The position numbers and the translations under genes are program-made. From Alphaproteobacteria bacterium (GTDB taxonomy: Bacteria; Pseudomonadota; Alphaproteobacteria; JAVJRE01): a stretch of 64,000 nt of DNA. The stretch is taken from NCBI GenBank assembly GCA_040218575.1, contig JAVJRE010000005.1, forward strand, positions 113,214-177,213, given 5' to 3'. The notes beneath the pieces are model-generated. The model did not search any database and was not told where the DNA came from. It worked only from the letters and a program-made list of their open reading frames with translations. Of this stretch, positions 7,303 to 61,063 are shown one piece after another (the stretch's first letter is position 1; each line of letters starts with the position of its first letter).

Positions 7303-9063
7303 GTGAAAGTAGAGGATTACGACGGCTGGACAAGCCTGCCGGCCATGTTCTTCGATCGCGCCGGCGCCATGGGCGATGCGCCGTTCGTGTGGCGCAAAAC
7401 GCAGGGTCGCTGGCAATCGCTGAGCTGGGCCGAGACGGCCGATCAGGTGCGCCGCCTGGCAGCGGGGCTTCGCCGCCTGGGAGTCGCGGCCGGCGACCGC
7501 GTGGTTCTGGTGGCGGAGAACCGGCCGGAGTGGCTGATAGCCGACCTGGCCATCATGAGCATCGGCGCCATTACCACACCGGCCTATACCACCAACACGT
7601 CCGACGACCACCGCCACATCCTGCAGGACAGTGGCGCCAGCGCGGCCATCGTCTCTTCGGCGCGCCTGGCCCACCGGTTGCTGCCCGCAGCCATCGCCGC
7701 GCCGGCGCTGGGCCACGTCATCGCCATGGAGGCGCCGGGACTGAAGCAGACCACCGGCGTCACCATCCATGACTGGGACCGGATTGTGGCCGATGGCGCG
7801 GCCGACGCCGACACCATTGCCGACGGTGTCCGGCAGATCAGCCGCGGTGACACCGCCTGCATCATCTACACATCAGGCACCGGCGGCGTGCCGAAGGGCG
7901 TGATGCTGAGCCATGGGGCGATTGTGTCCAATTGCAGCGGCGCCTTCGACCTGCTGCTGGCCCTGGGCCTGGACGATGAGGTCTTCCTCAGCTTTCTGCC
8001 GCTGAGCCATTCCTATGAGCACACCGCCGGCCAGTTCTTTCCCATCAGCATCTGTGCGCAGATCTATTATGCGGAAGGCATTGATGCCCTGAGCGCCAAT
8101 ATGGTGGAGGCGCGTCCGACCATCATGACGGCGGTACCGCGTCTCTATGAGACCATGCACCGGCGGATCAATGCGGCCATGGACCGCCAGGGCGGACTGA
8201 AAAAGAGACTGTTCGACCGGGCGCTGGCGCTGGGCCGGAAAAAGTTTCTCGATCCACGCTCACTGAGCCTCAGTGAACGGCTTACCAATCTGGTGCTGGA
8301 TCGCCTGGTGCGCCGCAAGGTGCAGCAGCGCTTCGGTGGCCGCCTCAAGGCCCTGGTGAGCGGCGGTGCGCCGCTCAATACGGAGATCGGCCTGTTCTTC
8401 TCGGCGCTGGGCCTGCGCCTGTTGCAAGGCTATGGCCAGACGGAGACGGCGCCGGTGGTGAGCTGCAACCGGCCCGACAGTGTCCGTATGGAATCGGTCG
8501 GCCCGCCGATTCAAGGGGCGGAGGTGCGCATTGCCGACGACGGCGAAATCCTGGTCCGCGGCGAACTGACCATGCAGGGTTATTGGAACAATCCGCAGGC
8601 GACGGCCGAAGTGTTGCGCGATGGCTGGATTCATACCGGCGACATTGGCCGACTGGATGACAGGGGCCGGATCGAAATCACCGACCGCAAGAAGGACATT
8701 ATCGTCAATTCCGGTGGCGACAACGTCTCGCCGCAGCGCATCGAGGGCATGCTTACCCTGCAGCCGGAGATCGCCCAGGCCATGGTCTATGGTGACCGTC
8801 GGCCGCATCTGGTGGCTTTGCTGGTGCCGGACGAAGAGTTCGTGGCGGGCCATGGCGACGGTGACCTGAAAGCGGCGCTGATGGAGGTGGTGGGCCGGGT
8901 CAATCGCGAACTGTCACCGGTCGAGCGGGTACGCGCTATCGCCGTCACCACCGATCCCTTCACCACTGAAAACGGTATGATGACGCCGTCACTGAAGATT
9001 CGGCGCCACGCCATTCGACAGGCCTATGGAGACCGTCTGGAGGCGCTGTACCGCCAGAGCTAA
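7303..9063 (+). CDS. long-chain acyl-CoA synthetase (AMP-dependent synthetase/ligase)
   Basis: AMP-binding motif IYTSGTGGVPKGVMLSH and the C-terminal ligase domain. It is the 3' part of an artefactual 1171-aa ORF. Start GTG 7303 (or ATG 7345), preceded by GGGAGGA. Confidence 0.8.
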   Translation: MKVEDYDGWTSLPAMFFDRAGAMGDAPFVWRKTQGRWQSLSWAETADQVRRLAAGLRRLGVAAGDRVVLVAENRPEWLIADLAIMSIGAITTPAYTTNTSDDHRHILQDSGASAAIVSSARLAHRLLPAAIAAPALGHVIAMEAPGLKQTTGVTIHDWDRIVADGAADADTIADGVRQISRGDTACIIYTSGTGGVPKGVMLSHGAIVSNCSGAFDLLLALGLDDEVFLSFLPLSHSYEHTAGQFFPISICAQIYYAEGIDALSANMVEARPTIMTAVPRLYETMHRRINAAMDRQGGLKKRLFDRALALGRKKFLDPRSLSLSERLTNLVLDRLVRRKVQQRFGGRLKALVSGGAPLNTEIGLFFSALGLRLLQGYGQTETAPVVSCNRPDSVRMESVGPPIQGAEVRIADDGEILVRGELTMQGYWNNPQATAEVLRDGWIHTGDIGRLDDRGRIEITDRKKDIIVNSGGDNVSPQRIEGMLTLQPEIAQAMVYGDRRPHLVALLVPDEEFVAGHGDGDLKAALMEVVGRVNRELSPVERVRAIAVTTDPFTTENGMMTPSLKIRRHAIRQAYGDRLEALYRQS

Positions 9064-10049
9064 GGCTGGCCGCCGTGATACTCGCGATACCAGGCGACAA
9101 AGCGCGGTATGCCGTCTTCGATAGAGGTGGTGGGGCGAAAGCCCACATCCCGGCTGATGGCGTCGATATCAGCATAGGTCTCGGCCACGTCGCCTGGCTG
9201 CATGGGTTTCATCTCCAGCTTTGCCGGGCGGCCGCAGGCACGCGCTATCAGATCAATGAAATGCAGCAGGTCTTCCGGCCGGTTGTTGCCGATGTTGTAG
9301 ACACGATGCGGCGCATCCCCGCCGGCCGGCCCGCCGCCGGCCGGAGGTGAATCGAGGCAGGCCAGAACCCCGGCAACGATGTCGTCGATATAGGTGAAGT
9401 CCCGCTTCATGCGGCCGTGGTTAAAGACCGCCAGAGGCTCGCCGGCGAGAATCCGCCGGGTGAAGATATAGGCGCTCATATCGGGGCGGCCCCACGGACC
9501 ATAGACCGTAAAGAAGCGCAGTCCCGTCATGGGAATTGCGAACAGATGGCTGTAGCTGTGGCTCATCAGCTCGTCCGCCCGCTTGGTGGCGGCATAAAGC
9601 GATACCGGACTGTCCACCCGGTCCTCCACGCTGAACGGTTGTTTGGTGTTACCACCATAGACCGATGACGAGCTGGCATAGACCATGTGCCGAAAGCCGG
9701 GCAGACGACGGGCCAGTTCCATGACCGTCAGATGGCCCAGCAGGTTGGCCTGGACATAGGCGTAGGGGTCTATGAGGGAGTGGCGCACACCGGCCTGTGC
9801 CGCCAGATGGACGATGCGGTCGACGCCGGCGGCCTCCAGACTCTCCATGGCCGCGCGATCGGCGATATCCAGCCGCTGAAAGCGAAAGCGCTCGTGATTG
9901 TGCAGCAGGGCAAGGCGCGACTCCTTAAGCCGCACATCGTAATAGGCGTTGAGATTGTCGAGACCGAGCACCGATTCGCCACGCTGCAGCAATGCCTCGG
10001 CCACATGAAAACCGATGAATCCGGCAGCGCCGGTGACGAGTATGGTCAT
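9060..10049 (-). CDS. NAD-dependent epimerase/dehydratase (UDP-glucuronate 4-epimerase-like)
   Basis: MTILVTGAAGFIGFH Rossmann start at 10047-10049. YASSSSVYG and YAATK catalytic motifs. Confidence 0.85.
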   Translation of the reverse strand: MTILVTGAAGFIGFHVAEALLQRGESVLGLDNLNAYYDVRLKESRLALLHNHERFRFQRLDIADRAAMESLEAAGVDRIVHLAAQAGVRHSLIDPYAYVQANLLGHLTVMELARRLPGFRHMVYASSSSVYGGNTKQPFSVEDRVDSPVSLYAATKRADELMSHSYSHLFAIPMTGLRFFTVYGPWGRPDMSAYIFTRRILAGEPLAVFNHGRMKRDFTYIDDIVAGVLACLDSPPAGGGPAGGDAPHRVYNIGNNRPEDLLHFIDLIARACGRPAKLEMKPMQPGDVAETYADIDAISRDVGFRPTTSIEDGIPRFVAWYREYHGGQP

Positions 10050-17371: not shown

Positions 17372-18640
<1,269 letters not shown>

Positions 18641-18688
18641 TCAAGCGAGGGCCGGACGGACCGGCGGCGCGACGGCGCGACGGGGCGT

Positions 18689-19609
18689 TCAACCAGCCTT
18701 GCGCGGCGGCGCCACCGTATAGCCATAGTCGTTGCGGGCGGTGCGGCTTTCCTTCCAGTCCCGGGAGCGCTTGCCCCACAGATTGGCGGGATCCACCCCC
18801 GGCCGATAGGTGCCGGAGAGGATCGTGTCGTCGTCCAACACCTGCAGCGGCACATACTTGTGGCCATCGAAACCGCGAAACGGTGCGTTGCGCACGGTGT
18901 TGTATGACAGGTGCAACACGGTGCGGTTGCGGTCGCTGGTATTGGCGCCGGAGGCGTGCAGGGTATTGCCGTGAAAGAACACCGCGTCGCCCGGCGCCAG
19001 ATCGCATTCCACCAGCTCCATATCGCCCAGCGCCTTCTCGACAAACTCCGGGTCGGTGCCGACCGACTGGCCGATGGGGACATGATCCACCCGGCCCATG
19101 AGGTGCGAGCCGCGGACCAGATTGACGCAGCCATTGTCCCGGTCGGTGGCGTCAATGGCGATCATGCAGGTAAGCATTTCCGGCCTGAGGCAGCCTTCGC
19201 GGTACCAGCTTCCATAATCCTGATGCCAGTCCCACGCGCCTTCGCTGTGCGGCTCCTTGAATGATATCTTGGAGTGCCAGTGATAGATGTCCTCGCCGCC
19301 CAGCAGATCAGTGGTCATATCCACCACCCGGCGAATACGGGTCATGGTGCCGAGAAGATCTTCGGAATGGCCGCTCCAACCAAACAGCTCCGCCGGCTTG
19401 CCGGCGGCGTTGATGACGCCCACACGGCCGTCGCGGAACTCTGTCTCGGTGGTAATGAAGCGATGAAAGATGTCGATCTCCGCCTGGCTGAACAGCGCCG
19501 GGATCCGCAGAAAGCCATCGGCCCGCCACGTCGCCATCTGATCCGCCGACAGGCGACGCAGCGGCGGCGGCGACAGGTCGGCAGGAGCCATTTCGGATAG
19601 CAAGGTCAT
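18689..19609 (-). CDS. phytanoyl-CoA dioxygenase (PhyH) family Fe(II)/2-oxoglutarate dioxygenase
   Basis: HWHSK...D and HGNTLHASGAN motifs (His-X-Asp...His facial triad). Start taken at ATG 19607-19609. Confidence 0.7.
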   Translation of the reverse strand: MTLLSEMAPADLSPPPLRRLSADQMATWRADGFLRIPALFSQAEIDIFHRFITTETEFRDGRVGVINAAGKPAELFGWSGHSEDLLGTMTRIRRVVDMTTDLLGGEDIYHWHSKISFKEPHSEGAWDWHQDYGSWYREGCLRPEMLTCMIAIDATDRDNGCVNLVRGSHLMGRVDHVPIGQSVGTDPEFVEKALGDMELVECDLAPGDAVFFHGNTLHASGANTSDRNRTVLHLSYNTVRNAPFRGFDGHKYVPLQVLDDDTILSGTYRPGVDPANLWGKRSRDWKESRTARNDYGYTVAPPRKAG

Positions 19610-19746: not shown

Positions 19747-21927
<2,181 letters not shown>

Positions 21928-49893: not shown

Positions 49894-51174
49894 TCACTGT
49901 GGCGTGTCAGGGTCCGAACCGGCTTCGCCGGTCGCTCCGCCGCCAATCAGAGCGTCGAGACGGACAAGAACGGCGTCCCGTTCCGGCGCAAAGTCGCTAT
50001 CGGCCCACCACCGCTCCAGCGCGGCCAGAAGAGCGCCGACCTGCGGGCCCGACGGAATGCCGCGGGCGATGACATCGGCCCCGCCGACCGGCAGATCCGG
50101 TCGCTTCCACCGGCGGGCCAGGCGCCACAGATCGATCCAGGCAGGGGCCCCCACCTCGCCGTAACGTGCCCAACCCAGCATGATCCGGTCCGCCGCATGA
50201 TCTCCCAGGGCAAAGACCAGCCGCCGGCCATCTGCCGCATCTGTCGGTGGCTGCCGCACCTCGCCCCCCGGACTGGTCAGGGCGACCAGCCGCTCACGCT
50301 CCGCATTGGCCAGGCGCAAGCGTGAAGCGACGTCACGCACGGCGGCCGGCTGCGGCCGCATGATCGCCGCCAACCGGCGCAGGGCATCCGGACCATCATG
50401 TGCCCGTTCTATGGCGAACAGGCGACCGGTAGCCGGGGTCACCTCCGCAGCCAGCGGCAGGTGGCGGAAAACGCCTATGTCCGCCATCAGGGTGAGCGCC
50501 GGTAATGGATCGCCGGCCAGCAGCAGACGGAGCAGTTCCGCCCGCACCCGCTCGCCCGACAGGGCCGGCAGGCGGTCGACCATGGCGCGACAGGCCTCCA
50601 CCGCCTGGCCGTCCGGCGCCCCCCGACCATAGTGGCTGTGAAACCGGAAGAAACGCAGCAGACGCAGAACGTCTTCGTCTATGCGCCGCCTGGCGTCGCC
50701 AACGAACCGCACCAGGCCCCGGTGCAGGTCGGGCAGGCCATCGGTCGGGTCATAGAGCGATCCGTCTGAATCGAGGTACATGGCGTTCATGGTGAAGTCG
50801 CGCCGCCGGGCATCACCCGACCAATCATCGGAGAAGGCGACTGTGGCGTGCCGGCCATGGCTCTCCACATCGACCCTGAGGGTCGTGATCTCGTAGGGGC
50901 GGCGCGCCACTACAGCCGTTACGGTGCCATGGGCGATACCGGTCGGCACCACATGAACACCGGCCGCGGCAAGGCGGGAGATGACCTCCTGCGGCCGCCA
51001 TTCGGTGGCGATATCAATATCGTGCACAGGCCGACCGATGACCGCATCACGCACGCAGCCGCCGACGAATCGGGCGGCCCGTCCCTCCCCCTGCAACGGG
51101 GCCAACACCGACAGGGTGTGGGGGTCCTGCATCCAAGGCTGGACGTCAATGCGGGTGACGGGGGCGAGAGTCAT
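49894..51174 (-). CDS. cca: CCA tRNA nucleotidyltransferase (poly(A) polymerase head-domain family)
   Basis: GG.VRD..(G)...D.D nucleotidyltransferase motif and RRD.TMNA. Confidence 0.85.
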   Translation of the reverse strand: MTLAPVTRIDVQPWMQDPHTLSVLAPLQGEGRAARFVGGCVRDAVIGRPVHDIDIATEWRPQEVISRLAAAGVHVVPTGIAHGTVTAVVARRPYEITTLRVDVESHGRHATVAFSDDWSGDARRRDFTMNAMYLDSDGSLYDPTDGLPDLHRGLVRFVGDARRRIDEDVLRLLRFFRFHSHYGRGAPDGQAVEACRAMVDRLPALSGERVRAELLRLLLAGDPLPALTLMADIGVFRHLPLAAEVTPATGRLFAIERAHDGPDALRRLAAIMRPQPAAVRDVASRLRLANAERERLVALTSPGGEVRQPPTDAADGRRLVFALGDHAADRIMLGWARYGEVGAPAWIDLWRLARRWKRPDLPVGGADVIARGIPSGPQVGALLAALERWWADSDFAPERDAVLVRLDALIGGGATGEAGSDPDTPQ

Positions 51175-51923
51175 GCGCGGCTGTCCGCGAGGAGGGACTC
51201 GTCGGGGCGATCCAGGGCCGCCTTCAGGGACAGCAGCATGCCGGCCGTAGCGCCCCAGATTTCAAATCCCTGCCATGTGCCGGAGTAGAAGTGGCGTTCA
51301 CGACCGGCGATATGCCGCCGTTGCAGCCGCAGGGAGTCAGCCGCCAGCACCCAGTCCAGCGGCGCCTCGAACACCGCCGCCACCTCCACCGGGTCCGGCC
51401 GCCACCGGGCCGGCGGGTCGAGAATCGCCACGACCGGCACGACCCGAAACCCGGTGCCTGTAAGATAGGGCGGCAGATGACCGACGATCTCGGCCCGGTC
51501 CGGCGCCAGACCGACTTCTTCCCATGCCTCGCGCCGCGCCGCCGCCACCGCATCCTCGTCGCCAGCCTCGATACGACCGCCAGGCAAGCACACCTCACCC
51601 GCATGATCCGCCAGAGTTGCCGTACGCTGGGTCAACAGGATCGCCACACCATGCGGGCGGGCAATCAGACCAACAAGGACAGCGGCGGCAATAACGCCGG
51701 CCACGCCGTCGCCGTCCGGCCTCTGGCCCAATCCGCCGGCGGCCGACGCTTCGATGGCGGAATCGCCCCACGGACCGCCCAACGGGCGGCCCGGCGGGCC
51801 GGCCAGGCAGCGCCGGATGCGGACAAACGGATCGGCGCCGACCGGATCGGCAGCGGCCGGCGCGCCAACCTGTATCCTGCCTGTGGCCCCGGTTGTTGTT
51901 ATGATCCGTCCTTCCTTGGCCAC
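51171..51923 (-). CDS. CoA pyrophosphatase (NUDIX hydrolase)
   Basis: Nudix box GEVCLPGGRIEAGDEDAVAAARREAWEEVGL. 4-bp overlap with cca. Start may be internal to the ORF. Confidence 0.8.
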   Translation of the reverse strand: MAKEGRIITTTGATGRIQVGAPAAADPVGADPFVRIRRCLAGPPGRPLGGPWGDSAIEASAAGGLGQRPDGDGVAGVIAAAVLVGLIARPHGVAILLTQRTATLADHAGEVCLPGGRIEAGDEDAVAAARREAWEEVGLAPDRAEIVGHLPPYLTGTGFRVVPVVAILDPPARWRPDPVEVAAVFEAPLDWVLAADSLRLQRRHIAGRERHFYSGTWQGFEIWGATAGMLLSLKAALDRPDESLLADSRA

Positions 51924-52067
51924 ACCGCCTCCTGAGTCTGCCTATTGGCCGTTCGCCCTGGCCGGCTGGCGATTGCGACCAGCCCTTCAACTGTCCGTGC
52001 GCGGACTCGGTATTCCCATGGTCCCGCTGGTATCCTACCCCATCATGCCCCGGACACGCCTCAGGAG

Positions 52068-53105
52068 ATGATGATGAGCGCCAGTGACACAGCCGTGGAT
52101 CCGATCCGCACACCGACCGGCGGCAGTGGCGGCAATCCGGTGGCCGAGATTGAGGCCCTGGCAGGACAGATCCTGCGCGCGCGCGACCATATCGGCCGGG
52201 TGATTTTCGGTCAGGAAGAAACCATCGAGCAAACCCTGGTCGCCCTGCTGGCCGGCGGCCACGTGCTGATTGTCGGCGTTCCCGGCCTCGGTAAGACGAA
52301 GCTGGTGGACACCCTCGGCGCGGTCATGGGTCTCGACAACCGCCGCATCCAGTGTACGCCGGACCTGATGCCGGCGGATATTCTGGGCAGCGAAGTGCTG
52401 GACGAGGATGCCGCCGCCGCCCGCCATTTCCGCTTCATACCCGGACCCGTTTTTACCCAGCTTCTGATGGCGGATGAAATCAACCGGGCCAGTCCGCGCA
52501 CCCAGTCCGCCCTGTTGCAAGCGATGCAGGAGCGGGAAGTGACCGTCGCCGGCGAGACCCACCGCCTGCCCCGCCCGTTTCACGTTCTCGCGACACAGAA
52601 TCCGATTGAGCAGGAAGGCACTTATCCTCTGCCGGAAGCCCAGCTTGACCGGTTTCTGCTGGAGATCGACATCGGCTTTCCCGACCGTGACGCCGAACGG
52701 ACCATCCTGCTGGCGACCACCGGCGCAGAAGAAGCGCCGCCCGAACCGGCCATGTCGCCGGAGGACCTTATACGAGCGCAGCAATTGCTGCGTCGCATTC
52801 CGGTCGGCGAGCAGGTGGTCGACGCCATTCTTACCCTGGTGCGGTCGGGCCGGCCCGAGGAGTCGGACCTGCCCGAGGTCAGCCGCAACGTCGCCTGGGG
52901 GCCGGGGCCGCGGGCCAGTCAGGCCCTGATGCTGGCATGCCGTGCCCGCGCCCTGCTGCAGGGCCGGCTCAGCCCGTCGGTCGACGATGTGGTGGCGCTG
53001 GCCGGGCCGGTCCTGCGCCACCGTATGGCGCTCAACTTCGCGGCCCGGGCGGAAGGAATCACCCTGGCAGACATTGTCGAGCGTCTGTGCGCCAGGATCG
53101 CCTGA
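52068..53105 (+). CDS. MoxR-family AAA+ ATPase
   Basis: Walker A GVPGLGKT and Walker B LLADEINRA. GGAG upstream of an ATG triplet. Confidence 0.9.
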   Translation: MMMSASDTAVDPIRTPTGGSGGNPVAEIEALAGQILRARDHIGRVIFGQEETIEQTLVALLAGGHVLIVGVPGLGKTKLVDTLGAVMGLDNRRIQCTPDLMPADILGSEVLDEDAAAARHFRFIPGPVFTQLLMADEINRASPRTQSALLQAMQEREVTVAGETHRLPRPFHVLATQNPIEQEGTYPLPEAQLDRFLLEIDIGFPDRDAERTILLATTGAEEAPPEPAMSPEDLIRAQQLLRRIPVGEQVVDAILTLVRSGRPEESDLPEVSRNVAWGPGPRASQALMLACRARALLQGRLSPSVDDVVALAGPVLRHRMALNFAARAEGITLADIVERLCARIA

Positions 53106-53133
53106 CACCGCCGGCCGGAAGGCGGAGCCAGCC

Positions 53134-54042
53134 ATGAGCAGCGGGGCGGCGCGCACCGTTCTGGACGCTCAGGCCCTGGGTGACACCCTGCCCGGGCTGG
53201 TGATTGCCGCCCGGCGCATCGCCGCCAATGTGGCGTTTGGCGTGCACGGCCGGCGGCGGCCCGGCAGCGGTGAGTCTTTCTGGCAGTTTCGCCGATACGG
53301 GCCGGGGGATCCGGCGCGCGCCATCGACTGGCGGCGCTCGGCCCGCACCCGCACACTCTATGTGCGCGAACGGGAATGGGCGGTCGCCGCCACCGTTCGC
53401 CTGTGGCGCGACACGTCACCGTCCATGGATTATGCCTCCGGCGACGACCTGCCGAGCAAGGCGCGGCGCGCGGAAGTCCTGCTTCTGGCGCTGGCCAGCC
53501 TGCTGCTTCGCGGCGGCGAGCGGGTCGCTCTATTGGGTCGCAGCGGCCCGGCGCTGGCCGGCCAGTTCGCCATGCCCCGTCTGGCCGAACATCTGACAGC
53601 GTCCGCCGTCGCACCATCAACGACGGACAATGGCGCGCAGACTTCCGCACTCGCCGGCCTGCCGGTGGCGACACCGCTTCCGGCCGGTTGCGATGTACTG
53701 CTGATCGGCGATTTCCTCGATGACCTGTCCGCCATAGAGGATCGTCTGGGACAGTTCGCCGCCATGGGCGCGCGCTGTCATCTGGTGCACATCCTTGACC
53801 CGGCTGAAGAGTTGCTGCCGTTCAGCGGGCGGACGCGGTTTCAGGGCCTGGAGAATGAGGGCGCCTTGCTGGTCGGCCGGGCCGAATCTCTGCAGGAGCC
53901 TTATCGCCGCACCATGGCGGCGCGCATGGACAGCCTTGTGGCCATGGCCCGCCACCATGGCTGGACCTACACCCGCCACCGCACCGACCATCGTCCGGAA
54001 CCGGCATTGCTTGCGCTGAGCATGGCGCTGGCAGGCGACTGA
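53134..54042 (+). CDS. DUF58 domain protein (vWA-like partner of MoxR)
   Basis: FRRYGPGDPARAIDWRRSART is the DUF58 signature. Immediately downstream of moxR. Confidence 0.8.
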   Translation: MSSGAARTVLDAQALGDTLPGLVIAARRIAANVAFGVHGRRRPGSGESFWQFRRYGPGDPARAIDWRRSARTRTLYVREREWAVAATVRLWRDTSPSMDYASGDDLPSKARRAEVLLLALASLLLRGGERVALLGRSGPALAGQFAMPRLAEHLTASAVAPSTTDNGAQTSALAGLPVATPLPAGCDVLLIGDFLDDLSAIEDRLGQFAAMGARCHLVHILDPAEELLPFSGRTRFQGLENEGALLVGRAESLQEPYRRTMAARMDSLVAMARHHGWTYTRHRTDHRPEPALLALSMALAGD

Positions 54043-54046
54043 CGCG

Positions 54047-56797
54047 ATGGCGCTGCTCGACGCGCTGGCCTTTACCTCGCCGTGGGTGCTGACCGCGCTG
54101 GTCGCCTTGCCGGCGCTCTGGTGGTTGATACGGCTTGTCCCGCCGGCGCCGCGGCGGCGGCCCTTTCCGGCCCTGCGTATTCTTCAGGGTCTTATGCGCA
54201 CCGAAGATCAGGCGGCGCGTTCGCCGTGGTGGCTTCTGTTGCTGCGTTTCGCCGCCGCCGCCGCCGTAATCATCGGCCTGGCCGGGCCGGTCCTGAACCC
54301 GCCACCGCCCTTGCCCGGCAATGGTCCGCTGATCCTGATCGTGGACAATGGCTGGGCCGCGGCGGGCGACTGGGCAGCCCGCCTGAGGACGATGGATCGA
54401 CTGCTGACCGCGGCCGAAGGTGACGAGCGCGCGGTCCTCCTGCTGGAAACGGCACCACCACCCGGTGGCGTCGGGACGGTAGCCGGGTTCGTGCCGGCAG
54501 AAGAGGCACGACGGCGCGCCCAGGCCATTGTGCCACGGCCTTGGGACAGTGACCTGGCCGCCTTTGAACGCCAGCTTGATGGCGCGACGGAAGCCGGCCG
54601 GCTGCTGGCCGGCAGCGCTATTGTCTGGTTGAGCGATGGGCTGGAACGGGCTGACATGGCTGGCCTGGCCACCCGCCTGCGGCGAATCGGCAGCTTCCGC
54701 ATGGTTCTGCCGGAGGCCGATTCGGCGGCCATGCTGATGCGGCCGCCGCAGGCACGGGGCAACGCCCTCCAGGCGGTTGTCGAACGCGCCAACGCCGATG
54801 GTCCCGTCGCCATTTCGGCAATCGCCCAGATGCCTGACGGCCGCATTGTCGCGGAAGCGCCGATCACCTTTGCCACAGGCGAGCAGATTGCCAGTGCCGA
54901 GTTTCTTCTGCCGCTGGAGTTGCGAAACCGGCTGGAAAGAATCGCCATCGCCGGTCGTGCCGGCGCCGGCGCGGTTCACCTGTTGGACGAACAGTGGCGG
55001 CGGCGACCGGTCGGGCTGGTCGCCAGCGAGTCAGTGGAGCGCGACCAGCCGCTTCTTGCCGAAACCTTCTATCTTGGGCGGGCCCTGGAGCCGTTCAGTG
55101 ACATCCGGCGCGGTGAGCTGGGCGACCTGACCGAGGATTCCCTGTCGGTTATCGTCCTGCCCGACATCGGCACATTGACGCCGGATGAATCGCGCCGGGC
55201 CGCGGCATGGATCGAACAGGGCGGAGTATTGCTTCGCTTCGCCGGCGAACGGCTGACCGAGGGCAGCGATGACCTGCTGCCGGTGCGCCTGCGCCGTGGC
55301 GGCCGCTTTCTGGGTGGCGCCCTCAATTGGGATCAACCGCAACCTCTGGCACCGTTTGCCGGGGATTCGCCGTTCAGCGGCCTGTCCGTGCCGGCCGACG
55401 TCACCGTGCGCCGCCAGGTCCTGGCCGAGCCCGACCCGGCGCTGAGCGAGCGGACCTGGGCGCGGCTGGCCGACGGAACACCGCTCGTCACCGGTGAGCA
55501 GAGGGGTCAGGGCTGGCTGGTGCTGGTTCACACCACGGCCAATACGGATTGGTCCAACCTGGCCCTGTCGGGTCTGTTCGTGGACATGCTGCGCCGTGTT
55601 ATCGGGCTTAGCGCCGGGGTTGCCGGGCTGGGTCAGACGGACCGCGTCCTGCAGCCGATTGTCACCCTGGACGGTCTCGGCCGGCTCGGCCCGCCGCCGA
55701 CCGGCAGCAACGGCATTGCGACCAGCGAGTTTGACGGCGCTGTGCCGGGAGCGACCCGCCCGCCGGGCTATTATGGCGCCGCAGACACGCGGTTTGCCCT
55801 TAACCTCAATCGCGCGGTTGAACCGCTGGCAACCCTGTCCTCACTGCCGCCGGGACTGGCCGTCGAGGGCTATAGCCTGGCCCGATCCATCCGGCTGATG
55901 CCCTGGCTGCTGACCGCCGCCTTTGTGCTTCTGCTGGCTGACCTGGCCATATCCCTCCACGCCCGTGGCCTGCTGAGCCCGGCCGGTGGCGGCGTGCGAC
56001 GTAGCGCCGGGCTGGCAATGGCGCTGTGGCTGGCCGCCGCCCTGACACCGGACTCCGCCGTCAGCCAGACCCTGAGCGACGATGATTTTGCCCTGGCCGC
56101 CACACTCGATACCCGGCTGGCCTATGTCCTGACCGGTGACGATGCGGTGGACGCCATCAGCCGGGCCGGCCTTTACGGCCTCAGTCTGGTGCTGGCGCGA
56201 CGCACCGGGGTGGAGCCTCTGGACCCGCTGGCGGTTGATCTGGAGCACCACGACCTGTCTTTCTTTCCGCTGCTCTACTGGCCGGTCACTGAGCGCCAGG
56301 CCATCCTGTCCGCCGCCGCCATTGGCCGCATCAACGCCTATATGCGAAACGGCGGAACCATCCTGTTCGACACCCGCGACCAGAATCTGGCAACGACGGC
56401 AAATGTGACGCCCGGCGTGGCGCGCCTCAGGAAGATGGCGGACGGGCTGGACGTACCGCCCTTAATGGCGCTGCCGGAAGAGCATGTCCTGACGCGGTCC
56501 TTCTATCTGCTGCAGCACTTTCCCGGCCGCTATGAGGGCGGTGCGCTGTGGGTCGAGCGGACCAGCGAACAGATCAATGACGGGGTGTCCGGCGTCATCA
56601 TTGGCTTCAACGATTATGCAGCAGCCTGGGCGACGGACCTGAACGGCAATCCGCTGCTACCGGTTAATCCGGGCGGCGAGCGCCAACGGGAAATGGCCTA
56701 TCGTTTCGGCGTCAACCTGGTGATGTATGCCCTGACCGGCAACTACAAGTCCGATCAGGTGCATGTGCCGGCCATTCTTGAACGGCTGGGTCAATAG
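54047..56797 (+). CDS. membrane protein with N-terminal double-TM (BatA-like) region and C-terminal DUF4159
   Basis: N-terminus LDALAFTSPWVLTALVALPALWWLIRL is the typical BatA-like double-TM start. C-terminus ...NDYAAAWA...LPV...YRFGVNLVMYALTGNYK is DUF4159-like. 916 aa. Confidence 0.7.
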   Translation: MALLDALAFTSPWVLTALVALPALWWLIRLVPPAPRRRPFPALRILQGLMRTEDQAARSPWWLLLLRFAAAAAVIIGLAGPVLNPPPPLPGNGPLILIVDNGWAAAGDWAARLRTMDRLLTAAEGDERAVLLLETAPPPGGVGTVAGFVPAEEARRRAQAIVPRPWDSDLAAFERQLDGATEAGRLLAGSAIVWLSDGLERADMAGLATRLRRIGSFRMVLPEADSAAMLMRPPQARGNALQAVVERANADGPVAISAIAQMPDGRIVAEAPITFATGEQIASAEFLLPLELRNRLERIAIAGRAGAGAVHLLDEQWRRRPVGLVASESVERDQPLLAETFYLGRALEPFSDIRRGELGDLTEDSLSVIVLPDIGTLTPDESRRAAAWIEQGGVLLRFAGERLTEGSDDLLPVRLRRGGRFLGGALNWDQPQPLAPFAGDSPFSGLSVPADVTVRRQVLAEPDPALSERTWARLADGTPLVTGEQRGQGWLVLVHTTANTDWSNLALSGLFVDMLRRVIGLSAGVAGLGQTDRVLQPIVTLDGLGRLGPPPTGSNGIATSEFDGAVPGATRPPGYYGAADTRFALNLNRAVEPLATLSSLPPGLAVEGYSLARSIRLMPWLLTAAFVLLLADLAISLHARGLLSPAGGGVRRSAGLAMALWLAAALTPDSAVSQTLSDDDFALAATLDTRLAYVLTGDDAVDAISRAGLYGLSLVLARRTGVEPLDPLAVDLEHHDLSFFPLLYWPVTERQAILSAAAIGRINAYMRNGGTILFDTRDQNLATTANVTPGVARLRKMADGLDVPPLMALPEEHVLTRSFYLLQHFPGRYEGGALWVERTSEQINDGVSGVIIGFNDYAAAWATDLNGNPLLPVNPGGERQREMAYRFGVNLVMYALTGNYKSDQVHVPAILERLGQ

Positions 56798-56799
56798 CC

Positions 56800-58881
56800 A
56801 TGGCCCCCGGCACACTCACCCTGGCGCCGCTGTTGCCGTGGCCGGTTCTGGTCGCGCTGGCGGTCATGGCCGGCGCCCTGCTGGCGCTGGCCATGATGCG
56901 CCGGGCGCGCGGTGCCGGATGGCGCCTGCTGGCCATGGCCGGGCTGCTGGCGGCACTGCTTAATCCGGCGTGGGTGCAGGAGGAGCGGACCGCGCTACCC
57001 GATGTGGCGCTGGTGGTGGTGGACGATTCCGCCAGCCAGGGCATTGGCCAGCGACGCGCCCGCAGCGAGCGGGCACTGGCCGCCCTGCAGGCGCAGGCCG
57101 TGGACGACACAACGCTTGAGCTGCGGGTGGTCAGGGTCGGCGGTCGGGCAGAGGAACATGCCCGCGATGACGGCACACGGTTGTTCGATGCGGTGGCCGA
57201 GAGCCTGGCGGACGTGGCGCCGACCCGGCGCGCCGGCATCGTCCTGCTGAGCGATGGTCAGGTGCATGACGCCCCGCAGTCAGCAGCGCAGGCAGAGCGC
57301 CTGGGCGCGCCGGTCCATGTACTGCTGAGCGGCGAGCGCGACGAGAATGATCGTCGCCTGGTTGTGGTGGAAGCACCGGGCTACGGCCTGGTCGACCGGC
57401 CCGTCACTGTGGTGGTGCGGGTGGAAGACGATACGGTGCCAGACGGCACACCGGTGCGACTGACGCTGCGTCAGGATGATCGTCTGTTGCCGGCACTGTT
57501 GACGGAGACCGGTCGCGATCGGGCCATTGAAATCACCCCCGACCATGCGGGCGCGACAATTGTCGAGCTGGCGGTCGATGGGCGGGACGGTCAGCTAACC
57601 GCGCGCAACGATCAGGCGGTGTTTGTCATCAACGGCGTGCGTGATCGTCTGCGTGTCCTGCTGGTGTCCGGCCAGCCGCATCCGGGCGAACGCACCTGGC
57701 GCAGCCTGCTGAAGGCCGATCCATCGGTCGACCTTGTTCACTTCACCATCCTGCGTCCGCCGGAAAAGGAGGCCAACACGCCGGTCGAGGAACTTTCGCT
57801 GATAGCCTTTCCCACACGTGAATTGTTTCAGGACCGACTGGACGAATTCGATCTTATAATCTTCGACCGCTATCGTCGGCGTGGCGTCCTGCCATCAACC
57901 TATATCGAGAACGTGGCCCGCTATGTGCGTGACGGTGGCGCCGTTCTGGTGGCCACTGACGAAAGCTTTGCCACGCCGCTCAGCCTGTACCGTACGCCGC
58001 TCGACTCGATTCTGCCGGTGACGCCAACCGGCGACGTCCTGGAGGGTGGATTTCGGGCAACCCTGAGCGCGGTGGGCCGGCGGCACCCGGTGACCGCCGG
58101 GCTGGAAGGGGCGGGCACAGTCGAAAGTGGACCCCTGTGGGGCCGTTGGTTCCGCCAGGTCAGTGTGCGGGTGCGCGATGGCGAAACGCTGATGACCGGC
58201 GCTGAAGAGGCGCCATTACTGGTGGTCAGCCGCCAGGGCAATGGGCGCGTCGCCCTGCTCAACAGCGACCATTTCTGGCTTTGGAGTCGCGGCTTCGAAG
58301 GCGGCGGCCCGGCCAGCGAATTGCTGCGCCGCATGGCCCACTGGCTGATGAAGGAGCCGGCGCTGGAAGAGGAAGATCTACGGGCCACCGCCGATGGCAA
58401 CCGTCTGACCGTGGAACGGCGCAGCCTGTCGCCGGATCCGGCCCGGGTTCGGCTGACCTCGCCGGCCGGCGCGGTCACCGATCTGCGGCTGGAACCCGGT
58501 GAAGACGGCAGGGCAACGACCGAACTGGCGGTGGTCGAGACCGGTGTCTTCAGGGTGGAAGACGGCACCCGCTCTACCCTGGTAGCGGTTGGCGCCCTCA
58601 ACCCGCTGGAGTTTCAGGACGCCCGCACCACGCCGGAACCGCTGGCCACGGTGATGAATGCCAGCGGCGGCGGCGCCCTCTGGCTCGCCGAAACCGCCGA
58701 ACCCGCCATCCGCCGCGTTGGCCGCGGACGCACCGCCGCCGGCGGCACGTGGCTGGGCCTGGTCGCCAATCGCGACTTTGTGGTCACCGGCCTGACCCGT
58801 GTGCCGCTGGCGCCGCCCTGGCTGGTGCTGGCTCTCATCATGGGTGGCATTGTTTTCGCCTGGCGACGGGAGTCAGCATAG
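56800..58881 (+). CDS. membrane-anchored vWA-domain protein (BatB-like) with C-terminal class-I glutamine amidotransferase-like region
   Basis: N-terminal TM helices, then MIDAS motif VVVDDSAS...T...SDG. C-terminal region with LLVSGQP...DLIIFD fold. 693 aa. Confidence 0.6.
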   Translation: MAPGTLTLAPLLPWPVLVALAVMAGALLALAMMRRARGAGWRLLAMAGLLAALLNPAWVQEERTALPDVALVVVDDSASQGIGQRRARSERALAALQAQAVDDTTLELRVVRVGGRAEEHARDDGTRLFDAVAESLADVAPTRRAGIVLLSDGQVHDAPQSAAQAERLGAPVHVLLSGERDENDRRLVVVEAPGYGLVDRPVTVVVRVEDDTVPDGTPVRLTLRQDDRLLPALLTETGRDRAIEITPDHAGATIVELAVDGRDGQLTARNDQAVFVINGVRDRLRVLLVSGQPHPGERTWRSLLKADPSVDLVHFTILRPPEKEANTPVEELSLIAFPTRELFQDRLDEFDLIIFDRYRRRGVLPSTYIENVARYVRDGGAVLVATDESFATPLSLYRTPLDSILPVTPTGDVLEGGFRATLSAVGRRHPVTAGLEGAGTVESGPLWGRWFRQVSVRVRDGETLMTGAEEAPLLVVSRQGNGRVALLNSDHFWLWSRGFEGGGPASELLRRMAHWLMKEPALEEEDLRATADGNRLTVERRSLSPDPARVRLTSPAGAVTDLRLEPGEDGRATTELAVVETGVFRVEDGTRSTLVAVGALNPLEFQDARTTPEPLATVMNASGGGALWLAETAEPAIRRVGRGRTAAGGTWLGLVANRDFVVTGLTRVPLAPPWLVLALIMGGIVFAWRRESA

Positions 58882-58916
58882 TGAGCGCGAAAACGGCTGA
58901 CGAAACGGAGCATCCC

Positions 58917-60167
58917 ATGGGGGGCGAAGAGCAACAGCGCGAAGCCGCCGCCAGCCTGATCGGCTGGATCCTGGAGGCGGCCTTGCAGCAGGGCCCGATC
59001 CAGTCGCTACTGGCAGAGTTGTGTGTCCGCATCCGGGCCCAGGGTCTGCCTCTGATCCGAGGCAGTATCGGCCTCAATACACTGCATCCCAGCATCGGCA
59101 GCCGCAGCTACGCCTGGTGGCACAACCGCGATTCCGTGGCGATGGACTTCCCACGGGAAGGAGGCAACGGCCCGGGGTTTGAGGAAAGCCCTTTCGCCCG
59201 CATGCTCTACTCGTCCACGCCGACGTTGCGGCGACGGCTGGAGAGCGAAGAAGAGATCGCCGAGTTTCCGATCTTCCGCGATCTGCACGCCGCCGGCGGC
59301 ACCGGTTATTACGCCATGGCCACCGCCTTCGGCCTGGCGCCGAATGATCTCAGTCAGGCCAACGGCATGGTATCCAGTTGGCTGACTGATCGCCCGGGCG
59401 GTTTCGCCGATGGCCATATCCAGACTCTGACGGATCTGATGCCGGCCCTGGCCCTTGCCGTGCAGGCGGCCAAGAACGCCGAAATCGCCCGCAATATCGC
59501 CACCACCTATCTGGGCGCCGACGCCGGCGGCCGGGTTCTGGCCGGGCAGATCACCGTGGGCGGCGCCCATAGCCTGACCGCCGTGCTGGTCTTTACGGAT
59601 TTGCGGGGCTTCACGGCCATCGCCGACCGTATTCCACGCGACGAGACGGTGCGCGTCCTCAACGCCTATTTCAAACCCATGGTGGAACCCATCAGCCGGC
59701 ACGGCGGCCAGGTTCTGAAGTTCATGGGCGACGGGCTTCTAGCCATTTTCCCGCTCGACGATACGGCGTCGGCGGAGACCGTTTGCGGCAGCGCCCTGAC
59801 GGCCATGGAGGAGATGCGCCGCGAGGTCCACGCCTTGAACCAGACCCGCGCCGCCGCCGGCGAGCCGGTCATGGAACTGGATACGTCGGTGCACCTGGGT
59901 GAGGTTCAGTACGGCAATGTTGGCAGCGCCGACCGCATGGACTTCACGGTCATAGGGCCCGCTGTCAATGAGGCCAGTCGCATCGAAGGCATGTGCCGCG
60001 CGCTCGATCGCGACATCCTGATTTCCAACGTCTTTGCCGACGCCTGTGGCCGCCACCGGGCGCGTCTTCTGCCGCTCGGCCGCTATGGCCTGCGTGGCGT
60101 CAAGGCGCCACAGGCGCTTTTTACGCTGTATGGCGAGGCGGCCGACAGCAACAACCGGTCGCCATAG
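58917..60167 (+). CDS. class III adenylate/guanylate cyclase with N-terminal sensor region
   Basis: C-terminal CHD: FTDLRGFT, FMGDGLLAIF and VIGPAVNEASRIE. Alternative GTG start at 58881 overlaps the upstream stop. Confidence 0.85.
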   Translation: MGGEEQQREAAASLIGWILEAALQQGPIQSLLAELCVRIRAQGLPLIRGSIGLNTLHPSIGSRSYAWWHNRDSVAMDFPREGGNGPGFEESPFARMLYSSTPTLRRRLESEEEIAEFPIFRDLHAAGGTGYYAMATAFGLAPNDLSQANGMVSSWLTDRPGGFADGHIQTLTDLMPALALAVQAAKNAEIARNIATTYLGADAGGRVLAGQITVGGAHSLTAVLVFTDLRGFTAIADRIPRDETVRVLNAYFKPMVEPISRHGGQVLKFMGDGLLAIFPLDDTASAETVCGSALTAMEEMRREVHALNQTRAAAGEPVMELDTSVHLGEVQYGNVGSADRMDFTVIGPAVNEASRIEGMCRALDRDILISNVFADACGRHRARLLPLGRYGLRGVKAPQALFTLYGEAADSNNRSP

Positions 60168-60179
60168 ACCCGCTGGCGG

Positions 60180-60905
60180 TCAGGCCGACCGCCCCTGCCG
60201 GTGACGACGCGCCAGTATGTTGAGCGCCTCCACACCGGATGAAAAAGCGATGGCGAAGTAGAGATAGCCACGGGGAATGTGGAAGCCGAGGCCATCGGCC
60301 ACCAGCGCCATGCCGACAATCAGCAGAAAACTCATGGCCAGCATCTTGGCTGTCGGGTGGCGTTCGATGAAGGCGCCCAGTGGCTCTGACAGAAACAGCA
60401 TGACCAGAATGCCGACGACCACCGCTGCGATCATGACCGGCAGGTGGTCCACCATGCCGATGGCGGTGATGATGGAATCCAGCGAGAAAACCATGTCGAG
60501 GACAATGATCTGGGCCACCGCCATGGCGAAGGTGGTGGTCGCGGCGGCAGCCGCGACAGACCCCTTTGGCGGGCTCTCCACTTCGCTATGAATTTCCATG
60601 GTGGCCTTGACCAGCAGGAACAGGCCACCGCCGATCAGCACCAGGTCACGCCATGAAAAGGTCAGGTCCAACAGGCTGAACAGAGGCCGCGTCAGGCCCA
60701 CCAGCCAGGCTATGGCCGCCAGCAACCCAAGCCGCATGCCCAGTGCCAGGCTGAGACCGATAACCCGGGCCTGCCGCCGCCTTTCCTGCGGCAGGCGCAG
60801 GGCGATGAGCGAAATGAAAATCAGGTTGTCGATGCCAAGGACAATCTCCAGCGCCGACAGCGTAAGAAACGCGATGATAATCTCGGGTTCAAACAGCCAT
60901 GCCAT
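60180..60905 (-). CDS. TerC-family integral membrane protein
   Basis: LSALEIVLGIDNLIFISL and VVLDMVFSLDSIITAIGM (DN/DS TerC motifs). 241 aa. Confidence 0.85.
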   Translation of the reverse strand: MAWLFEPEIIIAFLTLSALEIVLGIDNLIFISLIALRLPQERRRQARVIGLSLALGMRLGLLAAIAWLVGLTRPLFSLLDLTFSWRDLVLIGGGLFLLVKATMEIHSEVESPPKGSVAAAAATTTFAMAVAQIIVLDMVFSLDSIITAIGMVDHLPVMIAAVVVGILVMLFLSEPLGAFIERHPTAKMLAMSFLLIVGMALVADGLGFHIPRGYLYFAIAFSSGVEALNILARRHRQGRSA

Positions 60906-60988: not shown

Positions 60989-61063
60989 TGGTTGGGGCGG
61001 CAGGGATCGAACCTGCGAATCGCGGTACCAAAAACCGCTGCCTTACCACTTGGCTACGCCCCA
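60989..61063 (-). tRNA. tRNA-Gln (anticodon UUG)
   Basis: Reverse complement folds as a cloverleaf: acceptor TGGGGCG/CGCCCCA, anticodon stem GCGGT/ACCGC with loop TTTTGGT (anticodon TTG), T-arm GCAGG-TTCGATC-CCTGC, encoded CCA. Confidence 0.85.

Follow-up and report, generated by a model that had tools for sequence, protein, structure and literature searches.

MoxR-centered operons and the locus under study

The closest described counterpart of the locus considered here, a run of five genes at positions 52068–60167 of a 64-kb stretch of an alphaproteobacterial contig (JAVJRE010000005.1; the window throughout), is the cmdABCD operon of Rhizobium leguminosarum bv. viciae (J Bacteriol 193:2684). 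In 2011, Vanderlinde and colleagues reportedly described an operon coding for a moxR-like ATPase, a DUF58 protein and two transmembrane (TM) proteins, the expression of which is said to be highest in the stationary phase and to be lowered in a chvG mutant. According to published reports (PMC3893208, PMC5700661, bioRxiv 10.1101/551135), mutants in RL3499–RL3502 (cmdA–D) display defects in envelope integrity and in cell shape and morphology. The literature further terms these genes a “broadly conserved operon”, records their genetic interaction with the periplasmic TPR protein TtpA, and lists a predicted, uncharacterised cmd operon in Brucella abortus (bab1_1573–1576). Additionally, RSP_1024 of Rhodobacter sphaeroides, annotated as a “putative MoxR family protein”, has been recorded as having a binding site for CenR by chromatin immunoprecipitation sequencing, CenR being an essential regulator of the envelope and of cell division (PMC9275681).

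Two other sets of known systems share parts of this organization. The first comprises the BatI aerotolerance operon of Bacteroides fragilis and the Bat clusters of spirochaetes (bb0170–bb0176 of Borrelia, and those of Leptospira), which combine a MoxR ATPase and a DUF58 protein with BatA-type double-TM and vWA membrane proteins. The second comprises RavA–ViaA, NorQ–NorD, CoxD–CoxE and CbbQ–CbbO, in which an AAA+ ATPase of the MoxR family is genetically paired with a vWA protein bearing a metal ion-dependent adhesion site (MIDAS); in these systems the vWA protein is a soluble adaptor and there is a defined target enzyme.

An initial annotation of the window saw in the five genes an uncharacterised module with no assigned function and proposed that, together with the cyclase encoded by the last of them, they constitute an envelope-sensing signalling unit. 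Our analysis leads to a different picture: judged by sequence, the first four genes (g1–g4) are an orthologue of the already known cmdABCD operon, with its mutants defective in envelope and morphology, and the cyclase gene (g5), which does not belong to the conserved part of the module, is found beside it in this lineage alone. We hold it quite probable that this is the best explanation of the locus as a whole, namely a cmdABCD orthologue coding for a MoxR (MRP) ATPase, a DUF58 protein and two large inner-membrane proteins, beside which a lineage-specific cyclase has come to lie. As such, the finding is largely an ordinary one. The cmd-type MoxR operon is kept across the Alphaproteobacteria, including Brucella and the rhizobia, and affects envelope integrity; the copy described here adds little on its mechanism and offers a clean view of its anatomy, with a cytoplasmic MoxR ATPase and DUF58 protein and two TM-anchored proteins.

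A four-gene module shared with rhizobia and other Alphaproteobacteria

The five open reading frames (ORFs), all on the plus strand, fill 52068–60167 from end to end, in agreement with the co-directional arrangement proposed for them earlier. The first (52068..53105) codes for a MoxR-family AAA+ ATPase of 345 amino acids (aa), which is CmdA-like and predicted to be cytoplasmic (g1). It is followed by genes for a CmdB-like DUF58 protein of 302 aa (g2; 53134..54042), a CmdC-like membrane protein of 916 aa (g3; 54047..56797) and a CmdD-like membrane protein of 693 aa (g4; 56800..58881). In the sequence, these genes are separated by spacers of 28, 4 and 2 nucleotides (nt), which fall within the range of 2–30 bp given for them initially.

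For the rhizobial comparison we used chromosome-like Rhizobiaceae records in a plasmid collection (PLSDB). In a record of R. leguminosarum bv. viciae, one strand carries genes for a CCA tRNA nucleotidyltransferase, a CoA pyrophosphatase and a DUF1285 protein, and the opposite strand carries genes for a MoxR ATPase (336 aa), a DUF58 protein (306 aa), a DUF4159 protein (937 aa) and a hypothetical protein (689 aa), the last of which is followed by a convergent N-acetyltransferase gene and then by a glutathione S-transferase (GST) gene; the arrangement in Sinorhizobium meliloti is the same. The products of g1, g2, g3 and g4 are respectively 61, 48, 41 and 47% identical to those of the four R. leguminosarum genes, with which they are collinear and align over essentially their full length. 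The first three genes of this record, which comes from strain BIHB 1148 and not from strain 3841, contain 13, 20 and 42 TA dinucleotides, and the numbers of potential sites that the published mariner transposon-sequencing tables list for RL3499, RL3500 and RL3501 are 14, 18 and 42. Taken together, the description, the gene sizes and the TA counts make a strong case, short of formal proof, that the cluster in this record corresponds to RL3499–RL3502.

Every sequence-level mark of the cmdABCD family is found in g1–g4: the same four tightly spaced genes occur in the same order and in the same context of divergent CCA and NUDIX genes as in R. leguminosarum cmdA–cmdD. By analogy with their orthologues, g1–g4 would be needed for normal envelope integrity and cell shape. 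Two differences set the window apart from the R. leguminosarum operon: it has no DUF1285 gene between the NUDIX and MoxR genes, and it has a gene for a GAF-adenylate cyclase behind the fourth gene, where Rhizobium has the convergent N-acetyltransferase.

Beyond the rhizobia, a scan of one genome per species gave at least 594 confirmed loci, the best 80 of which, from 80 species, were compared; these span the Rhodospirillales, Kiloniellales, Parvibaculales, Rhodobacterales and Hyphomicrobiales. A tblastn comparison with the window proteins recovered the order MoxR–DUF58–DUF4159–g4 in every sufficiently long locus among the best 80, most of which also have the NUDIX and CCA genes upstream in divergent orientation. 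Homologues of g4 number more than 8,000, the named ones coming from Azospirillum, Oleisolibacter, Oceanibacterium, Indioceanicola and Stellaceae at 53–57% identity. A protein search with one g4 homologue, from a metagenome-assembled genome labelled Rhizobiaceae (locus L058), retrieved only Hyphomicrobiales metagenome-assembled genomes and Aestuariivirga, and no named Rhizobium or Brucella proteins. The conserved unit consists of the four genes, plus the divergent DUF1285, NUDIX and CCA neighbours.

The DUF1285 gene lies divergently between the NUDIX and MoxR genes in 58 related loci (L013–L087), as it does in R. leguminosarum and S. meliloti; in locus L090 it is at 2103–2726. No homologue of it was found anywhere in the 64-kb window, where the gap between the NUDIX and MoxR genes is 144 bp; a weak tblastn match at 20902–21152 falls inside uvrB and was dismissed as spurious. 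Conceivably, the cmd module has in the DUF1285 protein a conserved but unstudied partner, lost or moved in this lineage. As for the CCA/NUDIX pair, its persistence beside the MoxR operon from the Rhodospirillales to the Rhizobiaceae (loci L015–L085) is an unusually deep case of synteny with no obvious functional reason.

We also noted irregularities in the rhizobial records themselves. In four Sinorhizobium records (L091 and H8–H10) the match to the cmdD-like g4 is split into two to three pieces; in one of these (L091; S. meliloti Ak57, CP090106.1, 7698–9514) the pieces 7698–8246 and 8252–9514 are in different frames and no coding sequence is listed, which would fit a frameshifted pseudogene, an error in sequencing or an incomplete PLSDB gene table. 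Moreover, core housekeeping genes, namely those for the CCA-adding enzyme, leuA and the cmd operon, sit on the nominal plasmids NZ_CP022567.1 (R. leguminosarum “plasmid pSK03”, 408 kb) and CP090106.1 (S. meliloti “pSymB”, 3.7 Mb), both of which look like mislabelled or misassembled chromosomal sequence.

Domain architecture and predicted anatomy of the module proteins

The assignment of g1 to the MoxR AAA+ ATPases is borne out by Pfam matches to AAA_3 (2e-60) and AAA_lid_2 (5e-15), and its translation contains both a Walker A (GVPGLGKT) and a Walker B (LLMADEINR) motif. Likewise, g2 matches DUF58 (Pfam, 6e-30), as annotated, and hydrophobicity analysis found no TM segment in it. The description of g3 as a double-TM/DUF4159 protein held in profile searches with hidden Markov models: its residues 8–81 correspond to BatA_N/TIGR02226 (Pfam and NCBIfam; BatA 2e-18, TIGR02226 5e-18) and its residues 690–896 to DUF4159 (5e-48), for which a solved structure, PDB 4i66 (Hoch_4089), is matched with a profile at 8e-27. 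Hydrophobicity analysis of g3 places TM segments at 3–21 and 62–80, the N-terminal double-TM, and at 617–635; the loop between TM1 and TM2 (22–61) is Arg-rich, with seven Arg/Lys residues. With a weak fourth hydrophobic segment at ~652–668, there are either one or two TMs near residue 617. The central region of g3, after TM2, begins in a vWA-like manner without a DxSxS motif, and this start is MIDAS-less. Past the TM segments, the profile–profile comparison of g3 with the vWA region of g4 gives a weak match (hhalign E 0.008, probability 5%), which is insufficient for calling the two proteins paralogues.

From the N- to the C-terminus, g4 displays a TM hairpin, a vWA domain with a complete MIDAS, beta-sandwich domains, a GATase1-like/GIFT-like domain and a C-terminal TM anchor. 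The vWA domain attributed to it initially is supported by the intact MIDAS and by the fold in the structure model; however, the Pfam VWA models match neither g4 nor g3. The vWA and GATase1-like folds are both seen in the structure model rather than by Pfam, the matches of which are weak (DUF7408, 4e-6; GATase1_like, 1e-3). The MIDAS residues D75, S77, S79, T126 and D152 are invariant in an alignment of 18 homologues, and the best structural match of the modelled vWA domain is BatB of Bacteroides thetaiotaomicron.

The glutamine-amidotransferase-like C-terminal region of the initial annotation survives as a fold and not as an enzyme. In the model, this domain resembles non-catalytic GATase1-like, ThuA and IFT52 (GIFT) proteins. 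The same 18 homologues share no invariant or near-invariant Cys anywhere in the protein; therefore, the GATase1-like domain cannot be a Cys-dependent amidotransferase. The candidate identity of g4 as a class I glutamine amidotransferase was accordingly rejected, as the required Cys-His-Glu triad fails at its conserved Cys.

Hydrophobicity analysis of g4 delineates TM segments at 15–33 and 668–686, flanked by the motifs RRARG and WRRE, and its AlphaFold2 model has a further helix at 39–53. Based on the positive-inside rule applied to the Arg-rich loops, the large bodies of both g3 and g4 probably face the periplasm. The topology reported for the BatA-like protein BB0173 of Borrelia agrees with such an orientation.

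These features bear on whether the module could be a metal- or cofactor-insertion chaperone in the manner of CoxD/CoxE, NorQ/NorD and CbbQ/CbbO, or else a Bat-type system for aerotolerance or oxidative stress. The membership of g1 in the MoxR family, the MIDAS-bearing vWA partner that g4 would provide, with its BatB-like fold, and the BatA N-terminal domain of g3 all speak for such a function. However, no candidate target enzyme is linked to the module in the window or in the 80 relatives; the partners of the ATPase are large membrane proteins with probably periplasmic bodies; the TPR protein BatC, BatD and BatE are absent; and the sole genetic data on the operon orthologous to it concern defects of envelope and morphology. 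We therefore consider a chaperone or aerotolerance function highly improbable.

Unlike the canonical MoxR–vWA pairs, the vWA domain here lies in a TM-anchored, probably periplasmic protein, with a DUF58 protein interposed and no target enzyme linked. Relative to the Bat operons, the window unit is devoid of the TPR (BatC), BatD and SH3/TPR (BatE) components and is flanked by NUDIX, CCA and TerC genes; its g3 and g4 proteins exceed the Bat membrane proteins two- to threefold in size, with DUF4159 and GATase1-like domains in addition; and, whereas BatA_N is present in g3, a Pfam VWA match is lacking in both, the vWA fold with MIDAS in g4 coming from the structure model. With respect to the Bat operons of Bacteroides and the spirochaetes, the module is a relative only, given the missing BatC, BatD and BatE genes and the much larger membrane proteins with extra domains.

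The GAF-cyclase encoded downstream of the module

The fifth gene codes for a GAF-like domain fused to a predicted class IIIb adenylate cyclase and occupies 58881..60167 or 58917..60167, depending on its start. The TAG/GTG overlap described earlier exists, in that a GTG start at 58881 would have one base in common with the TAG stop of g4 (58879–58881); however, ATG 58917 in the same frame, which has a GGAG 6 nt before it, is no less plausible a start, and two gene callers are split between 428 and 416 aa. The 12 extra N-terminal residues that follow from the GTG start have a predicted local distance difference test score below 50 in the structure model. Depending on the start, g4 and g5 overlap by 1 nt or lie 35 nt apart, such that the gap is no more than 35 nt in either case.

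The class III cyclase assignment holds: residues 235–413 match Guanylate_cyc (Pfam, 1e-10), and the catalytic residue set is complete. The six canonical class III residues, comprising the metal-binding aspartates D240 and D284, the substrate-specifying pair K280 and T356, and the transition-state residues N363 and R367, are present in all members of a 26-member alignment, and T356 lines up with the specificity position of 6fht, a Cya2-derived cyclase. The Lys/Thr pair indicates a class IIIb adenylate cyclase with a complete active site. More than 5,900 matches place the protein in a very large family of ~400-aa proteobacterial proteins with homology along their full length, its best non-self match among these being 50% identical.

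The N-terminal region, originally left unassigned, is a GAF fold in the structure model and is joined to the cyclase domain by a long signalling helix; no Pfam or NCBIfam model recognises this GAF-like domain. The closest known systems are the GAF-regulated class III adenylate cyclases, such as the cyanobacterial CyaB1 and CyaB2, together with the class IIIb enzymes CyaB of Pseudomonas aeruginosa and CyaC of Spirulina platensis; g5 has in common with this group a homodimer-type class III domain, the Lys/Thr pair, all metal-binding and transition-state residues, and an N-terminal GAF fold connected through a long helix. The g5 protein differs from all of these in its single, highly divergent GAF-like domain. 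Hydrophobicity analysis found no TM or periplasmic segment in g5, which is soluble; therefore, it has no anatomical tie to the envelope.

Genomic context of the cyclase gene

At least 1.2 kb of sequence past g4 is available in 72 of the 80 compared loci, and a cyclase gene adjoins g4 in none of these 72. The one cyclase-like tblastn match in the 80 loci (L036) has 25% identity and lies ~6 kb downstream of g4. Instead, the first two ORFs downstream of g4 are unrelated and variable: they yield 141 proteins that fall into 104 clusters, the commonest genes being those for a convergent GNAT acetyltransferase (12 loci), GST (6), a LysR regulator (5) and TspO (3). Therefore, the conserved unit stops where g4 stops, and synteny breaks at this point.

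The converse comparison, starting from the cyclase, gives the same result. None of the five closest cyclase homologues examined (46–50% identity) has a MoxR gene nearby, and their neighbourhoods are unrelated to that in the window; in two of the five, a divergent gene precedes the cyclase gene and a short-chain dehydrogenase gene follows it, and a third likewise has a dehydrogenase gene downstream. The same five-gene arrangement was found only on five contigs with an identical g4 (from the metagenome-assembled genomes GCA_040221855.1 and GCA_040222535.1 and from three Logan sequencing-run assemblies); sequenced samples containing this organism are SRR26209547, SRR26209234 and SRR26209069. These belong to one species and, therefore, do not constitute independent evidence. 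Apart from this species, the closest relatives among the matches listed are ~57% identical in g4 and ~50% in g5.

This distribution weighs heavily on the proposal of the initial annotation that the five genes act as one unit, in which the MoxR/vWA membrane complex would sense envelope or membrane stress and control cyclic AMP (cAMP) synthesis by the cyclase. In its favour are the co-directional genes, the overlap or short gap between g4 and g5, the want of terminator-like and promoter-like sites between them in consensus scans, the recurrence of the arrangement on the five contigs with identical g4, and the native-like codon usage of the cyclase gene. On this last point, a compositional sign of recent transfer was sought in g5 and not found, its codon usage and its GC content at third codon positions matching those of the neighbouring genes. 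Set against this are the absence of the cyclase from beside the module in all 72 relatives and the location of all five of its closest homologues elsewhere, by which the cyclase is not syntenic with the MoxR cluster. Further, the contigs with the same arrangement all come from one species, and the cyclase is a soluble, cytoplasmic protein with a GAF-type small-ligand domain, bearing no membrane or periplasmic segment. On balance, an envelope-sensing five-gene signalling unit is quite improbable.

A distinct issue, which concerns transcription only, is whether g5 might be independent of the operon, driven from a promoter within the 3′ end of g4, its adjacency being purely positional. That synteny breaks past cmdD, where the genes differ in almost all relatives, that a tRNA-Gln gene lies just past TerC, and that the ATG at 58917 has its own GGAG Shine–Dalgarno sequence are all compatible with independence. 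Conversely, no sigma-70-like promoter was found upstream of g5 by a consensus scan that has alphaproteobacterial and alternative-sigma promoters outside its reach, and, across so short a gap (35 nt at most) that lacks a terminator, read-through would be expected even with an internal promoter. The failure of the consensus scans to find a promoter-like or terminator-like site at the g4–g5 junction is itself weak evidence: the sites they report are no more frequent than in shuffled sequence, and they neither support nor exclude an internal promoter. We regard an independently transcribed cyclase gene as rather unlikely.

The tight gene spacing makes co-transcription likely, and it is plausible that g5 is co-transcribed with g1–g4, probably by read-through from the operon promoter. 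This promoter is presumed to lie in the divergent intergenic region of 144 bp upstream of g1 (51924..52067), in which the consensus scan found no sigma-70 match.

It is also conceivable, though distinctly doubtful, that the GAF-cyclase was recruited here as a fifth cmd gene, with cAMP synthesis becoming transcriptionally coupled to expression of the envelope module; in a stronger form of this idea, the GAF domain would sense a cytoplasmic metabolite linked to the activity of the module. If true, this would be a natural example of a MoxR envelope system tied to cyclic-nucleotide signalling. However, the adjacency of the cyclase matters only if functional coupling is shown, and comparative genomics gives such coupling no support.

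A proposed mechanistic model and the points that weigh against it

Combining the orthology with the predicted anatomy of g1–g4, we propose that MoxR, as a hexamer in the cytoplasm and with the DUF58 protein serving as adaptor, would expend ATP in assembling or remodelling a complex of g3 and g4, possibly by acting on the short Arg-rich cytoplasmic loops and tails of these two proteins. On the other side of the membrane, the vWA-MIDAS, the non-catalytic GATase1/GIFT-like and the DUF4159 domains might bind envelope partners in a metal-dependent manner, and the g3–g4 complex would be required for normal envelope integrity and cell shape. The g5 protein, for its part, would be a cytoplasmic GAF-adenylate cyclase that is regulated by a small ligand and read through from the operon promoter.

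Several points weigh against this picture of a cmdABCD orthologue with a lineage-specific cyclase neighbour. The roles given above to the DUF58 adaptor, to MIDAS binding and to the GATase1-like domain are ones that we infer. The topology of g3 and g4 is drawn from hydrophobicity and the positive-inside rule, and the weak g3 segment at ~652–668 would decide which side of the membrane the DUF4159 domain faces. The equation of the BIHB 1148 cluster with RL3499–RL3502 is built on description, gene sizes and TA counts. With regard to the cyclase, the databases offer no genome with a g4 between 57% and 100% identical to that in the window, so that the comparison of its linkage covers relatives more distant than the same genus or family, and a distance of no more than 35 nt would allow for a real functional coupling in this lineage.

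Flanking genes and further observations

Upstream of the module, the two divergent neighbours are on the minus strand. The gene at 51171..51923 codes for a NUDIX hydrolase (NUDIX, 3e-14), called a CoA pyrophosphatase in the Rhizobium annotation, the synteny of which is kept; that at 49894..51174 codes for a CCA tRNA nucleotidyltransferase with PolyA_pol (4e-29) and PolyA_pol_RNAbd domains and stands outside the function of the module. Downstream of g5 is a convergent TerC gene (60180–60905). The only RNA gene found in the window, that for a tRNA-Gln (anticodon TTG), is on the minus strand at 60989–61063, ~0.8 kb past the cyclase and between the TerC gene and the GDP-sugar epimerase/dehydratase genes. 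Synteny with the relatives ends in this cyclase–TerC–tRNA segment.

One of the same-species contigs (L001) extends the view to ~5–8 kb past the cyclase. It codes there for a 557-aa protein with Sel1 and PG_binding_1 domains (17459–19132) and, at 20069–21769, for a 566-aa TPR protein beside a gene of the GHMP-kinase family, an assignment made at the level of the Pfam family and possibly corresponding to ispE. The 566-aa TPR protein could be a TtpA-like envelope protein.

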